DNA of 32,000 nt from Candidatus Hermodarchaeota archaeon (GTDB taxonomy: Archaea; Asgardarchaeota; Heimdallarchaeia; Hodarchaeales; Hodarchaeaceae). The notes under the pieces are model-generated. The model searched no databases. It was not told the DNA's origin and saw nothing but the letters and a program-made list of their open reading frames with translations. Below are positions 6,623 to 12,569 of this stretch, piece by piece. Location of the stretch: the NCBI GenBank assembly GCA_048886185.1, contig JBHLKY010000006.1:30001-62000 (forward strand). The letters are read 5' to 3'. Position 1 is the first letter of the stretch. Every line of letters starts with the position of its first letter. The translations under genes and the position numbers were made by a program.

Positions 6623-7762
6623 TCAACAGAACAAATTATACAATGTCCCACGCTCACAAGGTATTCTTTGAAGCTGGTGAATACTTGTTTGAAACTTTTC
6701 TGGTGTTATAAATTGTCCAAATGTTCCTCCTGCTGATCGGGTAATATTTTCCTCAAATAATGTTCCCCCAAAATCATTACATCCACTTTCTAATGTTATC
6801 TTAGCCAGAGGGAACCCTAATTTCACCCAAGACGTCTGAATATTCCTAAAAGTTTCTCCCAAAAACAATCTGGAAACAGCATAAAACTTGATATAATCTA
6901 ACTTGCTTAATTCCTGTATATGAAAGGATGTATCTTTCTTCAACCGTGTATTGGCCGCGATGAAAGGGAGGGGAATAAATTCTGTGAATCCACCTGTTTT
7001 TTCCTGAATTATTTTTAATAAGGAGAGATGGTGTATCCAATGGTTTGAATTTTCTATATGGCCAAAAAGGATTGTTGCTGTAGTTGGAATTCTTAATTGA
7101 TGGCATTGTTCGATGATATCGATCCATTCACTACTACTTAACTTAGCAGGGCAAATAATTTTGCGAATCTTGTCATCTAGTATCTCTGCTGCAGTTCCAG
7201 GAACAGAGTCCAAACCGTTTCTTTTAAATTCTTTTAAAACATCTACGACATCTTGCCCTATAGATTTAGCTGCATGAACAATTTCTTGAGGAGAAAACGC
7301 ATGAATATGTATAGTAGGATCAATACTCTTAAGATTTTTAATGATTTCAAGATATGTATCGAAAGTAATATTCGGATGAATCCCTCCTTGGACACACACC
7401 TCTGTTATACGATATGGATGGGTTTGATTAATTTTTTCACGCAAGAATTCAGTTGAGATATCAATATACCCATCGATTGAATCAACTGGTACAGAATATG
7501 CACAGAAAAGACAATTCTTAGAACAGACATTGGTGAAGTTGATGTTACGATTAACAACATATGTTATTATCGAACCTACTTGACGTTTCCTAATAATATC
7601 TGCAACCTGACCTAAAAGAAGTATTTCACGTCCCTGTGACGAAAATAAAATTTTAAGCTCATTGATTGTAGGAATTTGCTCATCTAATGCTCTTTTTAGA
7701 ATATCACGAATTTTTTTCCTAGCTATTCGAAGATCAACCTCCAAGCGATCAATTTTCATCAT
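6623..7762 (-). CDS. cofH: FO synthase subunit 2 (radical SAM)
   Basis: TYVVNRNINFTNVCSKNCLFC (CX3CX2C), EVCVQGG, HAFSPQE, PGTAAEIL, FIPLPF, IQTSWVKLG, NDFGGTLFEENITRSAG. Confidence 0.93.
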   Translation of the reverse strand: MMKIDRLEVDLRIARKKIRDILKRALDEQIPTINELKILFSSQGREILLLGQVADIIRKRQVGSIITYVVNRNINFTNVCSKNCLFCAYSVPVDSIDGYIDISTEFLREKINQTHPYRITEVCVQGGIHPNITFDTYLEIIKNLKSIDPTIHIHAFSPQEIVHAAKSIGQDVVDVLKEFKRNGLDSVPGTAAEILDDKIRKIICPAKLSSSEWIDIIEQCHQLRIPTTATILFGHIENSNHWIHHLSLLKIIQEKTGGFTEFIPLPFIAANTRLKKDTSFHIQELSKLDYIKFYAVSRLFLGETFRNIQTSWVKLGFPLAKITLESGCNDFGGTLFEENITRSAGGTFGQFITPEKFQTSIHQLQRIPCERGTLYNLFC

Positions 7763-8913
7763 TGTTCAACAGCCATCCTGATTTTTTGGTTTTTAATCCT
7801 CGCTAGCTCATGAACTCGCTCTGAAAGCCACTCTGTATTTATGAACCGAGGATAAACAGGGAGTCTCTCACGTAAAGAATATCCAGCTTGTTTTGTTACC
7901 TCTTCAAGTTTTGAAATTGAAGGCCATTTATGATCTGGATTAATATAATCATGTGTGATCGCTGATATCCCCCCCCAGTCAGACATCCCGGCCTTTATAA
8001 AGCGATCCTCATAATTTTGTACAAGATTTGGTGGAATTTGTATTGATACATCTGGTGGGAGAATATGGCGGGCGACAATTAGGATTTTTTCCATTAAATC
8101 TAGAGAGGGAGGGGAATAATTCGCCATAATGCTGTTTTTATGAGGTTGAAAATTCTGAATAATCACCTCTTGAATGTGTTGATGCTTTTGATGAATATTT
8201 TTCAAAGCAAATAGACTTTCAACAATTTCTTCAAGAGTTTCACCAATTCCAATTAATATTCCACTTGTAAAGGGAATCTTAAGTTCTCCAGCAGAAGTAA
8301 TGGTCTTAATTCTTTTTTTAGGGTGTTTATCAGGAGATCGAAAGTGAGGTAATCCAGCTTGAGTAAGTCGTATGCTTATTGTTTCTAACATCAGTCCGAT
8401 ACTAGCTGAAACTTCCCGTAAATGTCTAAGCTCATCCAAAGTCAAAGTTCCAGCATTAATATGAGGTAAAAGATCGTATTTCAAAGCTTTTTCTGCAATA
8501 AAGTGTGTGTAATCTGTTGTTGACTCAAATCCATGCTTAGTTAACCACTTTTTGGCAACAGAGTGTTTTTTCTCGGGTTTTTCACCCATTGTAATAAGAA
8601 CTTCAGATACTCCTTGGTTTTGAGCAAGACTTAAAATCCTTTCAACTCTCTCAGGTTTCAAGAATTCTTGACCTGGAAGTACTTTAGAACGATGAAAACC
8701 GCAGTAATCACATACATTGCTACAAAGAAATGTTAAGGGAATGAAAACGTTTGTAGTGAACGTAATATGATGTTCATAAGCATTAATTGCAATAGATTGA
8801 GCGGACTTTTTCCATAAATCAATTTCAGCTGAATTATTTCGATATAGAAATTCTACTATTTGACTAACGGTTGTAGCTTCAGGAGGACTAATTTTGGAAG
8901 TATTAGGTATCAA
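7759..8913 (-). CDS. cofG: FO synthase subunit 1 (radical SAM)
   Basis: FIPLTFLCSNVCDYC, GEKPE, LPHINAG, GLMLE, PDKHP, FTSGILIGIGE, QEVIIQNF, QIPPNL, DWGGIS. TTG start; ATGA overlap with cofH. Confidence 0.93.
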   Translation of the reverse strand: MIPNTSKISPPEATTVSQIVEFLYRNNSAEIDLWKKSAQSIAINAYEHHITFTTNVFIPLTFLCSNVCDYCGFHRSKVLPGQEFLKPERVERILSLAQNQGVSEVLITMGEKPEKKHSVAKKWLTKHGFESTTDYTHFIAEKALKYDLLPHINAGTLTLDELRHLREVSASIGLMLETISIRLTQAGLPHFRSPDKHPKKRIKTITSAGELKIPFTSGILIGIGETLEEIVESLFALKNIHQKHQHIQEVIIQNFQPHKNSIMANYSPPSLDLMEKILIVARHILPPDVSIQIPPNLVQNYEDRFIKAGMSDWGGISAITHDYINPDHKWPSISKLEEVTKQAGYSLRERLPVYPRFINTEWLSERVHELARIKNQKIRMAVEQ

Positions 8914-8930
8914 AACTAGATCTCCATACT

Positions 8931-9602
8931 TTAATGTGAATTTATATCTATCTGTTCTAATATTCTTGCAAGATGATTTGATTCAAAAACCATCGACAAA
9001 TGCTTTTTTAAATATTTGACATCATTAAGAGTATCCAAATCTCGAGCAAAAGGATCAAATTTAAGTACACGATACTTTAGATTCTTTAAATTAGCCTCTC
9101 TTTGAAATTTGGTGCAACTATTCATTCCGAATTGAAATGATAATAAATCACTCCTCTTTAGAAATAGGGCAGTGGTTCCCCTGTTTTGATCATTGGATAT
9201 CGATGGAATAATCAGAACATCGTTATTTTGAATTTCATTCAACAATTTCTCAAAAAAAACCTCAGAAATATATGGTAAATCTGGCATAATAATTAAAATC
9301 GATTTATCGGTGGATATTTTTTGAACTGCTTCTGATAATGCTACATTTAAATCGACACCCGAATCACAATATGTGAATGTGGCTCCCAAGTTTATACTAT
9401 TATTTATAATAGAGATTGAAGGTGAAATCACGCCAAAAGGGCATGAAACTGATTTTATTATTTCAATAGTTTGATAAAAAATGGTCTCTACAAGGTTATC
9501 TATAAGTGGTGAGAATTCAGCGGGGATTGCTTTTTTTATGCGTGTCTTAGTTTCTAAAAAATCCTTAATGGGAATAAGAATAATGAGGTCAGATCTTTTC
9601 AG
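8931..9602 (-). CDS. cofC: 2-phospho-L-lactate/PEP guanylyltransferase; extended to a CTG start (223 aa)
   Basis: The ORF-track fragment has DLN, MPDLP, GTT, FG and DLDT..D. The frame stays open 57 codons upstream of GTG 9431 and encodes LIILIPIKDFLETKTR, the CofC N-terminal IPxK..KxR motif. An in-frame TAA lies just upstream of CTT-CTG, and SD GAAGGTG sits 8 nt before CTG 9602. Confidence 0.85.
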   Translation of the reverse strand: MKRSDLIILIPIKDFLETKTRIKKAIPAEFSPLIDNLVETIFYQTIEIIKSVSCPFGVISPSISIINNSINLGATFTYCDSGVDLNVALSEAVQKISTDKSILIIMPDLPYISEVFFEKLLNEIQNNDVLIIPSISNDQNRGTTALFLKRSDLLSFQFGMNSCTKFQREANLKNLKYRVLKFDPFARDLDTLNDVKYLKKHLSMVFESNHLARILEQIDINSH

Positions 9603-9649
9603 AAGTTAAACACCTTCATCTGTTTAAAAAACATTGAAATTTATTATTT

Positions 9650-10411
9650 CTAAAAGTGTTTCACGAGAGAATGAAAAAGCAATGGATTGTTGTTAGCTGC
9701 TCTAGCAACCGAGAAAAACTGTACACCGGTATTTAGAACAGCTTGAGCACTTTTTTTATCCACTATAGAATTGTTTCCGATAAGAGGGGTATTTACATTG
9801 TTCTTATAATGCTTTAATAAAGCTAAATCAGTCCCTTTTTTTCCTATTTTATAGGAATCAATGTGCAAAAAGTCGAGTTGCCACTGCTTAACTCGAGGGA
9901 TAAATAAATCTGGATCGATTGCGTTTCCTCGAATCTTCAAAGAAACTTCAAAATCTTTTGACTGAAATACCCGAATGACATCTGTGAGCACATCAAAACG
10001 CTGTAAAAGACCCTGACCCCCTCCTTTTTGTGTTACTTCAGGTTGTTGACAATGAGCATTTATTTCAAGAATTGGATTCTCTTTTCTCGACGACAGATCA
10101 TGAAAATCTCTAGCAAATTTTCCAGCATTTTCAGAGTTGTTGATTCTTAGGTTGATGATAAGCTGAGAAAAATTAGAGATTTTATTAGCTTCTCTCAATA
10201 TTTGGCTTGATTCTTTTCCAACTTGAAGAGTGAATTCTTCTCGGCCCCTCTGAAGGATTTGATTTGAAGCCATAATCATTTCTTTACCTATTGAATATCC
10301 TCCGATAGTGACCCTCCCAGCGCCACCTTCTGATAAACATTGATTGGCAAAATCACCATTAGTTATTCCAGCCATTGCAGCCAGAATGCTTGGATTTACA
10401 AGAGTCCCCAT
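9650..10411 (-). CDS. Archaeal Dus/NifR3-related FMN TIM-barrel protein (MJ0144-like)
   Basis: ILAAMAGITNG, EINAHCQQPEV with a Dus-type Cys, GGGQGLL, VSLKIRG, LHIDS, IGNNSI, SVARAA. Its ATG abuts the cofD TGA. Confidence 0.8.
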   Translation of the reverse strand: MGTLVNPSILAAMAGITNGDFANQCLSEGGAGRVTIGGYSIGKEMIMASNQILQRGREEFTLQVGKESSQILREANKISNFSQLIINLRINNSENAGKFARDFHDLSSRKENPILEINAHCQQPEVTQKGGGQGLLQRFDVLTDVIRVFQSKDFEVSLKIRGNAIDPDLFIPRVKQWQLDFLHIDSYKIGKKGTDLALLKHYKNNVNTPLIGNNSIVDKKSAQAVLNTGVQFFSVARAANNNPLLFHSLVKHF

Positions 10412-11344
10412 TCAGCTACGATCCATAATTCGCTTAAACAAGCGGATAGCGTCATTCTTGGTGCGAATGTATATATCATCCAAAATTGGTTTAATCCCTT
10501 TTCCTTTGATTTCATCAATGTACTGCTTATCTGTATGATGAATCACCAAAGCGTCTAATACATCATGAAACATTTCTGCAATTACTGTAGGAGAAACATC
10601 ATGTCCCCACGCTCTTAAGAAATCCGCTGTTGGACCTGAAACGGGAGCTGATCCAATTATTGGACTAATAGCAACACGATAAGCTGAAGCGTTTTGTAAC
10701 GCTTCACGCAAAGGATACAGAGCTAGAATTGGTCCAATTGAGGAAATAGGGTTACTTGGACCGATTATAATTGTATTGGCTCTTTCAATGACATTTAGAA
10801 CCTGATCTGTTGTATTTCTAAGATCTCCTTCAAAAAACACATTTTTAACAGGTAATTTTCCCTTATATTTCACCCAAAACTCCTGTAAATGGAGTGTTTG
10901 ATTGGGTGTCCTAACTTTTGTTTGAATAACTTGATCTGCCATTGGTAATATACGAGATTGTATGTTCAACCTTTCCCTTATAATTTCTGTTGCCTCTGTA
11001 AGAGATTTTCCGTTATTCAGTAAATATGTTCTGAATAAGCATAATCCAGTATCAAAATCACCGAGATTGAACCAAATATCTTCTTTAAGTTGATCTTTAA
11101 GAAATTCAACTAGTTTAAAAGTATCATTCTTTATTCCCCACCATTTTTCTGTATCAATAAGATTGCTTAATGTCAATAAAATACTATCGATGTCAGGTGA
11201 TACATATAACCCGTAGAAATCCCAATCATCCCCAGTGTTTCCAATAACAGTAATTTGATGAGGATCAATAATCTTTACTACCCCGTGTAACAATTTAGGC
11301 GTTCCAGTACCCCCTGATAAGAAAACAACGCTTGGAGAACTCAA
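10412..11344 (-). CDS. cofD: 2-phospho-L-lactate transferase
   Basis: LSGGTGTPKL, NTGDD, VSPDID, WFNLGD, LPM, HLQEFWV, IGPSNP..SIGPIL, SPIIG..PVSGP. Confidence 0.95.
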   Translation of the reverse strand: MSSPSVVFLSGGTGTPKLLHGVVKIIDPHQITVIGNTGDDWDFYGLYVSPDIDSILLTLSNLIDTEKWWGIKNDTFKLVEFLKDQLKEDIWFNLGDFDTGLCLFRTYLLNNGKSLTEATEIIRERLNIQSRILPMADQVIQTKVRTPNQTLHLQEFWVKYKGKLPVKNVFFEGDLRNTTDQVLNVIERANTIIIGPSNPISSIGPILALYPLREALQNASAYRVAISPIIGSAPVSGPTADFLRAWGHDVSPTVIAEMFHDVLDALVIHHTDKQYIDEIKGKGIKPILDDIYIRTKNDAIRLFKRIMDRS

Positions 11345-11450: not shown

Positions 11451-12569
11451 ATGACTACACAAAACAATGAATGGGATCTTATTTTCCTTGGTGAAAATGA
11501 AAGTATAAATACTCAAACAGTTTGGCATGCTGCTAGCTTGGCAAGAAGTAGGGGAATCCAAAAACGCGATCTTGTCATTATTGACTGGCCAAAGGATCCA
11601 ATTGTCTGTTGTGGACTTCATCAATCCTTAAACCATGTGGTAGATCTGAATTATTGTGAAACACATAACATTCCAGTCGTCAGACGAGTTTGTGGAGGAG
11701 GTGCAGTTTTACTTGACTCAAACCAGCTCTTTTATAATATTGTGGCTCATATCGATTCTAATATTGTCCCACGCCAGATTATTAATTTATATTCAAAACT
11801 TCTCGAACCTGTTGTTAAAACTTATCGTCATTTTAATATTGAGGCTGAATATAGACCAGTGAACGACATTTTGGTCAAGGGGCGCAAAATTTCAGGAAAT
11901 GGAGCTGCTCTCTTAGAGAGTGCTCAAGTTTTGGTCGGGAATTTTATATTAGATTTTCCTCGTAAGGAGATGACCCAAATACTGCGGGTACCAGACGAAA
12001 AATTTCGTGATAAAGTCTATAAATCTTTAGAAGCTGGAATAACATCCTTCAAAGATGAGTTAGGTTACATTCCAAAACGAACTGATATTATTGATTCATA
12101 TACAGAACAACTTGAATCACTCCTCAATATTCACCTGACTTCAGCTACATTGGAACCAAAGACAATTGAATTGATGGAACAATTAAATTCTACCTATTTA
12201 ACAGATGAATGGAAATTTCAAGTGTCTCAAAGAGGGAAAAACCTGATTCATAAAGTTAAAATTCAAGCTTCAAATTACGTTGTTGAGGGAACCTATAAAT
12301 CAACAGGTGGCTTAATACAGGTGATTTGTGAGTTTCAAGGGTCAGTTCTTTTGGATATTCTAATAAGTGGTGATTTCTGGATTTATCCTGATCTTATCCT
12401 TCCTCAATTGGAGCAATATCTTCGTAAAGTTGATTTGAAGAAGATTGATTTGACATCTCATATTGAATCATTTTTATTCAATAATAATTGTGAAAGTCCT
12501 GGTACTACAGCAGCAGATTTAGCAAAATCAATACATAACGCATATGAGAACATTTCTCACGGTTCCTGA
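11451..12569 (+). CDS. lplA: Lipoate-protein ligase A family, catalytic domain plus C-terminal domain
   Basis: IVCCGLHQ, VVRRVCGGGAVLLD, NDILVKGRKISGNG, VGNFILDF; C-terminal YKSTGGLI and ISGDFW. Confidence 0.85.
   Translation: MTTQNNEWDLIFLGENESINTQTVWHAASLARSRGIQKRDLVIIDWPKDPIVCCGLHQSLNHVVDLNYCETHNIPVVRRVCGGGAVLLDSNQLFYNIVAHIDSNIVPRQIINLYSKLLEPVVKTYRHFNIEAEYRPVNDILVKGRKISGNGAALLESAQVLVGNFILDFPRKEMTQILRVPDEKFRDKVYKSLEAGITSFKDELGYIPKRTDIIDSYTEQLESLLNIHLTSATLEPKTIELMEQLNSTYLTDEWKFQVSQRGKNLIHKVKIQASNYVVEGTYKSTGGLIQVICEFQGSVLLDILISGDFWIYPDLILPQLEQYLRKVDLKKIDLTSHIESFLFNNNCESPGTTAADLAKSIHNAYENISHGS

Follow-up and report, generated by a model that had tools for sequence, protein, structure and literature searches.

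The window analysed here, a stretch of 32,000 nucleotides from a Candidatus Hermodarchaeota archaeon, carries on its minus strand a single head-to-tail operon in which cofD, a gene for a Dus-like TIM-barrel protein, cofC, cofG and cofH follow one another in that order. The first gene, cofD (10412-11344), encodes the 2-phospho-L-lactate (or enolpyruvyl) transferase and is identified by TIGR01819 (304 bits, cut-off 257) and PF01933. It is followed by the gene of interest (9650-10411), which on the evidence of TIGR00736, PF01207 and a model structure encodes a protein of 253 amino acids, a Dus-like FMN TIM barrel belonging to the MJ0144 or 'archaeal Dus' family, and which we consider a candidate F420 side-chain ene-reductase. 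A first-pass annotation of this DNA had placed the TIM-barrel gene between cofD and cofC with its ATG directly after the cofD stop codon, and the sequence bears this out, as the cofD stop abuts the ATG in a TGAATG junction (10409-10414). Next comes the guanylyltransferase gene cofC (8931 to about 9602; TIGR03552, PF01983), and then the genes for the two radical SAM subunits of FO synthase, cofG (7759-8913; NF004884, 424 bits) and cofH (6623-7762; TIGR03551, 420 bits), which overlap by 4 nt. The listed cofC open reading frame matches its profile only from position 50, and the typical CofC N-terminus is encoded by an in-frame extension upstream of it. This frame is open from a TAA at 9606-9608, and its first 58 or so conserved codons include no ATG, GTG or TTG. 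Since the conserved N-terminus thus precedes the first such codon of the frame, cofC probably starts at a CTG (9600-9602) or at an ATT. Beyond cofH lie genes for a receiver domain, a sugar nucleotidyltransferase and a membrane protein, and the divergent gene upstream of cofD is lplA-like; none of the genes flanking the operon on either side is F420-related. The CofE of the host genome (4.84 Mb, 96% complete) is a stand-alone protein.

The Dus-like protein had been described in the first-pass annotation as a short relative of MJ0144 and the Dus enzymes that retains the Dus-type cysteine but apparently not the C-terminal tRNA-recognition domain, and our analysis agrees on each of these points. 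TIGR00736, the profile of the MJ0144 family, matches it over its full length (E 3e-45, 154.5 bits, profile positions 1-226 of 231), and with 41.3 bits it passes the gathering cut-off of 20.4 bits of the Pfam Dus family, PF01207, the match ending at position 226 of 311 and thus covering the barrel part only. Although TIGR00736 is the best-matching family, the score remains under the equivalog cut-off of 218.7 bits, and for this reason we take the protein to be a diverged Asgard branch of the MJ0144 family. Among the five genomes of relatives that were tested, only the Methanobacterium copy passes this cut-off. The closest protein relatives carry the labels Heimdallarchaeota or Hodarchaeota. Relatives are either 236-277 amino acids long or, in a long-form clade with a C-terminal extension, about 370-390; a search of this extension against Pfam matched no family. 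AlphaFold, supplied with a 50-sequence alignment, predicts with high confidence (pLDDT 96, pTM 0.93) nothing beyond one (beta/alpha)8 barrel, a helical domain being absent and the C-terminus being formed by the last barrel helices (H236-252). The nearest structure found by Foldseek is E. coli DusB (6ei9; E 2.6e-10, TM 0.70), followed by DusC, human Dus2 and T. maritima TM0096 (1vhn) and, after the Dus enzymes, by dihydroorotate (DHODH) and dihydropyrimidine (DPD) dehydrogenases.

At the residue level the protein carries the signature of the 'archaeal Dus' family, N118-A-H120-C121-Q-Q123, K159-I-R161 and H183-I-D185, the first of these within the motif EINAHCQQPE (residues 116-125). Cys121 aligns with the catalytic cysteine of Dus, and the residue that follows it is Gln here and Arg in most family members. 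Invariant or nearly so across the family are N118, H120, C121, Q123, K159, R161, H183, D185, N213, N214 and S215, with H120, C121, K159, R161 and D185 identical in all 50 aligned sequences; the same is true, or nearly so, of G56, R57, E59 and F60 in a family-specific GRxEF loop, which sets the protein apart from the Dus enzymes. Five of the six residues essential in Thermus thermophilus Dus are retained (N90, C93, K132, R134 and H164 correspond to N118, C121, K159, R161 and H183), whereas the sixth, Arg166, is replaced by the invariant D185, and the Gly and Pro that flank the cysteine in Dus enzymes by His and Gln. Kasprzak et al. (2012) noted the same substitutions when they filed the family as 'archaeal Dus' (NxGCP to NxHC(K/R), KxR retained, HxR to HxD), and MJ0144 (UniProt Q57608) serves as the representative of 'archaeal Dus' in a later paper on Dus enzymes. 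The tRNA role of the MJ0144 family, however, is derived from homology alone, the literature that we searched containing no experimental test of it.

The linkage to the cof genes, whose conservation the first-pass annotation had put forward as a check on its proposal, proved clearly positive. Among the 301 Asgard genomes sampled, the Dus-like gene has strong matches, besides the host genome, in 58 others from eight GTDB families, and cofD is present in 58 of these 58; 242 of the 301 genomes gave no match. By family (numbered f1, f2 and so on in our sample) the gene occurs in 19 of 20 genomes of f1, 21 of 29 of f3, 3 of 5 of f12, all five of f20 and all six of f23, and also in f5, f13 and f15. 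One metagenome-assembled genome labelled 'Thermoproteota' at NCBI was grouped with the Asgard genomes in the genome collection used. All 29 loci fetched from other Asgard genomes place the gene directly downstream of cofD, even at identities down to 34%, and comparison of coordinates puts it in the same position in about 22 more; the junction is either abutting, as here, or a 4-nt overlap. Outside the Asgard archaea, cofD and the Dus-like gene share 4 nt in contigs of Theionarchaea and Methanofastidiosa, and the vicinity contains no further cof gene. The order in 29 loci of Methanobacteriaceae is purO-cofE-cofD-arfA-Dus-like, with arfA lying between cofD and the Dus-like gene, and Methanotorris has an arfA-Dus-like pair. 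A second sample comprised 151 genomes of the GTDB phylum that contains Methanosarcina. Exactly one copy of the gene is present in 100 of these, and cofD lies immediately upstream in 35 of the 100, a linkage that is ambiguous in this phylum because the Dus-like gene sits here between cofD and methanopterin-type genes (CitG-like, DUF447, DmrX). The matches in 16 of the 35 are divergent, and the three that were fetched have 69-75% GC and look haloarchaeon-like. In the tree, the cofD-adjacent genes are spread over at least five deep clades.

What do Asgard archaea that have cofD carry in place of this gene? The origin of the phospholactyl bridge of archaeal F420 has long been an open question, and the lactate kinase proposed for it, CofB, was never found. 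Bashiri et al. (2019) showed that a nitroreductase fold reduces dehydro-F420-0 in mycobacteria, whose PEP route needs this activity and whose reductase is what archaeal CofE is without. The only archaeon with an FbiB-like protein in that study was Lokiarchaeum; for the others, PEP as the precursor would call for 'an unknown dehydro-F420-0 reductase'. In 10 of 15 Asgard loci without the Dus-like gene, the neighbour of cofD is a nitroreductase gene of PF00881. It stands by itself in some loci (cofE-NTR-cofD or NTR-cofD-cofC) and is joined to CofE in others, giving an FbiB-like protein of 470 amino acids. A profile built from these cofD-flanking nitroreductases detects orthologues at 157-337 bits in about 100 Asgard genomes, all of them without the Dus-like gene, and such high-scoring orthologues adjoin cofD wherever coordinates were compared. 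They are present in 4 of 4 genomes of f8, 9 of 76 of f11, 66 of 68 of f14, 16 of 19 of f17 and 4 of 4 of f19, as well as in f10 and f29, and the nine in f11 are exactly those with cofD. The two genes never occur together in the Asgard sample, save for two weak nitroreductase matches in f23 (131-136 bits, on contigs other than that of cofD). As related genomes are not independent, this exclusivity may go back to a mere handful of evolutionary events. The best nitroreductase match of the host genome reaches 90 bits and lies far from the cof genes, and in the sample of Methanosarcina's phylum the FbiB-type model finds nothing above 133 bits.

One slot beside cofD that is taken, in the Asgard sample, by either of two unrelated flavoenzymes, with no co-occurrence of the two, is a classic sign of non-orthologous displacement. 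The Dus-like protein would accordingly parallel FbiB's C-terminal domain and the stand-alone nitroreductase-fold reductases (Actinobacteria and Thermomicrobia; CofE-NTR in Lokiarchaeia) in its proposed FMN-dependent enolpyruvyl reduction, as it does in its position next to cofD or cofE and in its restriction to genomes with cofD. The parallel is one of analogy and not of homology: the nitroreductases have an alpha+beta fold, and as a TIM barrel without a match to PF00881 the Dus-like protein can at most be their functional analogue. Then again, neither reductase is found in a number of genomes with cofD, namely in the Asgard families f2, f4, f6, f7, f9, f18 and f22 and in about 48 of the 148 cofD genomes of Methanosarcina's phylum; a renewed search of five genomes without the gene, at E 1e-3, yielded no divergent Dus-like homologue. 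This indicates that the step is not universally needed or that a third solution exists.

A further indication comes from structure prediction. CofD and the Dus-like protein, each supplied as an alignment, were modelled together, as the first-pass annotation had suggested, and the resulting complex scored 0.61, compared with 0.00 for the best of three controls. Of solved complexes, 58 of 80 attain this level, and of mismatched pairs 2 of 110, counts that are only rough because our own alignments were used. Contact agreement between the runs was at least 87%, and the partner pLDDT was at least 89. The contacts on the side of the Dus-like protein are formed by residues 43-64, including the GRxEF loop, and those on the side of CofD adjoin its invariant GPSNP region. 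Judged from the order of secondary structure elements in the model, residues 43-64 appear to be placed at the barrel's side or back and not at the active site. No solved complex of this sort is known to us; the model supports binding of the Dus-like protein to CofD but stops short of demonstrating it.

Taken together, these findings lead us to suggest that the Dus-like protein is fairly probably an ene-reductase that forms the lactyl group of F420 somewhere in the pathway. Because its gene fills the slot of a known F420 side-chain reductase, it is a testable candidate for the lactyl-forming step. The more specific assignment as dehydro-F420-0 reductase we put forward with reserve, giving it somewhat less than even weight. 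In this scheme, CofC and CofD would build dehydro-F420-0 from phosphoenolpyruvate, and the CofD-bound Dus-like enzyme would then convert the enolpyruvyl group, by reduction of its C=C bond, into the L-lactyl group of F420-0, with C3 receiving a hydride from reduced FMN and C2 a proton from Cys121. This would be the chemistry by which Dus, DHODH and DPD act on the C5=C6 bond of pyrimidines, the Dus enzymes presumably sharing with the Dus-like protein the addition of a hydride from FMNH2 and a cysteine proton to a conjugated C=C bond, and it would make the protein a substitute, though no homologue, for FbiB's C-terminal nitroreductase-fold domain. FMN binding, substrate, reductant and stereochemistry are in this scheme what we infer. 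A precedent for the transformation exists in MurB, the UDP-N-acetylenolpyruvylglucosamine reductase, in which a flavin-dependent enzyme likewise converts an enolpyruvyl ether to a lactyl ether. The comparison is drawn from general knowledge and not from sequence or structure, MurB having an unrelated FAD-binding fold, another substrate and a D-lactyl product. The earlier proposal of a dehydro-F420-0 (or EPPG) reductase rather than a tRNA modifier is thus supported, at the level of comparative genomics, by the linkage to cofD and the exclusivity with the nitroreductase, and the case for a tRNA role is weakened. Our search found no literature that links the MJ0144 family to F420, subscription journals being poorly covered in it.

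At which step, then, would the enzyme act? Reduction might take place earlier, the Dus-like enzyme converting PEP to 2-phospho-L-lactate (2-PL), or EPPG to LPPG, and so replacing the never-found lactate kinase. We regard this as rather unlikely, yet it has substantial arguments on its side. The archaeal CofC/CofD pairs tested by Hasan et al. (2022) proved highly specific for 2-PL, which those authors reinstated as the likely precursor in archaea; this favours a reduction before CofC over one after CofD. Pairs that prefer or require 2-PL include those of M. jannaschii and M. mazei, the source of their 2-PL is unaccounted for, and the genomes of M. jannaschii and Methanosarcina do carry a member of the MJ0144 family. 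The invariant residues R57, N87, R89, N118, H120, K159 and R161 would suit a small anionic substrate, and all of the linkage evidence fits a step at PEP or EPPG equally well. On the other hand, the Dus-like gene holds the slot of an enzyme whose known substrate is dehydro-F420-0, and it is coupled to cofD, not to cofC, its product being modelled in complex with CofD. If Lokiarchaeia use PEP together with an FbiB-like reductase, the simplest parallel would moreover be the same substrate. Dehydro-F420-0 is hence favoured, though not decided on, by the slot that the gene has in common with the FbiB-type enzyme, by its coupling to cofD and by the complex model.

Other redox roles linked to F420 or flavins can be envisaged, such as an enzyme binding FO or F420 at the uracil-like ring (for hydride exchange between FMN and the deazaflavin, repair or salvage), or a step in the formation of the pyrimidine precursor shared with riboflavin; a deazaflavin-using or salvage enzyme had also been named in the first-pass annotation. 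The retention of five of the six essential Dus residues is compatible with a role of this sort, since the deazaflavin and 5-amino-6-ribitylaminouracil both contain a uracil-like ring, and arfA, the gene for GTP cyclohydrolase IIa/III, adjoins the Dus-like gene in Methanococcales and Methanobacteriaceae. The arfA neighbours had led us to consider a riboflavin-precursor reductase in particular. This candidate is weakened by the host genome, in which a RibD_C-type reductase (136.6 bits) is available for the ribosyl reduction and arfA is missing, and by the confinement of the gene to cofD genomes in the Asgard sample, as riboflavin is needed by all. Nor would any such role explain the exclusivity with the FbiB-type reductase, and we therefore hold this group of functions to be decidedly improbable.

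The function under which the family is filed, that of a minimal archaeal dihydrouridine synthase acting on tRNA or other RNA, would make the position beside cofD a conserved accident. It can draw on the PF01207 match, on DusB and DusC as the closest structures, on the retained Dus Cys, Lys, Arg, His and Asn and on the classification by Kasprzak et al. (2012). In addition, the gene is the sole PF01207 match in the host genome, so that paralogy gives no argument against a tRNA role. Against it stand the missing helical tRNA-binding domain, the exchange of the essential Arg166 for Asp and of GCP for HC(R/Q)Q, and a gene context of cofactor biosynthesis instead of translation. Of four methanogen genomes examined, those of Methanosarcina, Methanobacterium and Methanoperedens have, in addition to one copy of the family, a separate Dus-like open reading frame of approximately 305-350 amino acids. 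Dihydrouridine has been reported to be rare or absent in hyperthermophilic Methanococcales, and yet members of the family occur in two such hyperthermophiles, M. jannaschii and Methanotorris igneus. Finally, the gene is missing from those 242 Asgard genomes and occurs in the sample only together with cofD. We thus consider it very improbable that this is the function of the protein, which may nevertheless have a second, RNA-directed activity.

A role in methanopterin biosynthesis, for instance as a flavin-dependent reductase converting the ribofuranosyl to the ribityl group of the aminobenzene intermediate, is suggested by the long form of the gene (about 378 amino acids; Methanosarcina, Methanocellales, Archaeoglobi and others), which is followed by a CitG-like gene, DUF447 and the dihydromethanopterin reductase gene DmrX (TIGR02700, 302 bits) and lies near a gene for a pterin-binding protein; in Methanosarcina's phylum, however, cofD adjoins the CitG-like gene and DUF447 even where the Dus-like gene is absent, this being a mixed coenzyme cluster. 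As a general function we reject this role, which is scarcely credible given that the host genome has no beta-RFAP synthase (MptG), CitG-like or DUF447 gene and that the Dus-like gene does not track MptG across the Asgard genomes, four carriers being without MptG, two carriers having it and three non-carriers having it too.

We return, therefore, to the reduction of the F420 side chain. It is just short of an even prospect, in our estimate, that the whole 'archaeal Dus' family, MJ0144 and its relatives, is the lactyl-forming reductase of F420, acting in complex with CofD on the enolpyruvyl group derived from PEP, and not an RNA modifier. If this is true, the scheme in which 2-phospho-L-lactate is supplied by the lactate kinase CofB would be wrong for these lineages, and the database annotation of the MJ0144 family as 'tRNA-dihydrouridine synthase' would need correcting. 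The only proposed archaeal Dus would thereby be removed, which would reopen the question of what makes the dihydrouridine in archaeal tRNA. A compact part for heterologous F420 production would also be gained. With a named gene and a clear assay, the use of PEP in methanogens, haloarchaea and Asgard archaea could be settled. On this reading, the step would be served in archaea by no fewer than two unrelated enzymes, the Dus-fold barrel and the FbiB-type nitroreductase, each of which would repeatedly have taken the place of the other.

FbiB-type nitroreductases, the known type of dehydro-F420-0 reductase, are more widely distributed in Asgard archaea than previously reported. Whereas an FbiB-like protein had been stated to occur among archaea only in Lokiarchaeum (Bashiri et al. 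2019), we find cofD adjoined by FbiB-like CofE-nitroreductase fusions (470 aa) and by free-standing nitroreductase genes in seven Asgard families (loci L119-L133; genomes G147, G210, G279, G001, G118, G060, G155, G004, G029 and G240). The lineages carrying such a cofD-linked fusion or nitroreductase probably use the PEP/dehydro-F420 route.

The long form of the Dus-like family carries a C-terminal extension of about 120 aa in which a C-x10-CC-x5-C motif occurs twice (L055:6700-7077; other long forms in L089, L117 and L161). No Pfam family was found for this extension, which looks like an iron-sulfur module and as such could feed electrons to the FMN. Two of the loci seem to be mislabelled in public records: the MAG of L044, listed under 'Thermoproteota', is the same genome as a member of Asgard family f12 in our collection, and the gene on the 'Anaerolineales bacterium' contig (L097) is almost the same as Methanosarcinales copies, at a branch length of 0.002.

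In the window, the cofC frame (8931-9608, minus strand) is open from a TAA at 9606-9608, downstream of which it encodes a CofC N-terminus of the typical kind, and its earliest ATG, GTG or TTG lies at 9431, some 58 codons in. Translation therefore likely starts at a CTG (9600-9602) or an ATT (9579-9584); alternatively, cofC may be N-terminally truncated. Divergent from cofD lies an lplA-like lipoate-protein ligase gene (11451-12569, plus strand), an arrangement that recurs in 10 of 11 loci from Hodarchaeales-group relatives (L033-L043; exception L039). Outside the window, the same genome has a second CofE-like gene (G000:C8:42397-43059; 175.6 bits, just under the TIGR01916 cut-off) in addition to a regular stand-alone cofE (C8:168466-169197).

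Throughout the phylum of Methanosarcina, cofD clusters with CitG-like, DUF447 and DmrX genes (L148, L149, L154, L158-L164). Such clusters are also present in GC-rich (67-75%), haloarchaeon-like genomes; according to the literature, methanopterin-specific biosynthesis enzymes are absent from haloarchaea.

Finally, many cofD-bearing genomes (Asgard families f2, f4, f6, f7, f9, f18 and f22; G460, G487, G504, G475, G546 and others) lack both the Dus-like gene and an FbiB-type nitroreductase. In these genomes the lactyl group would have to come from a third reductase or by a third route, unless the step is dispensable there.
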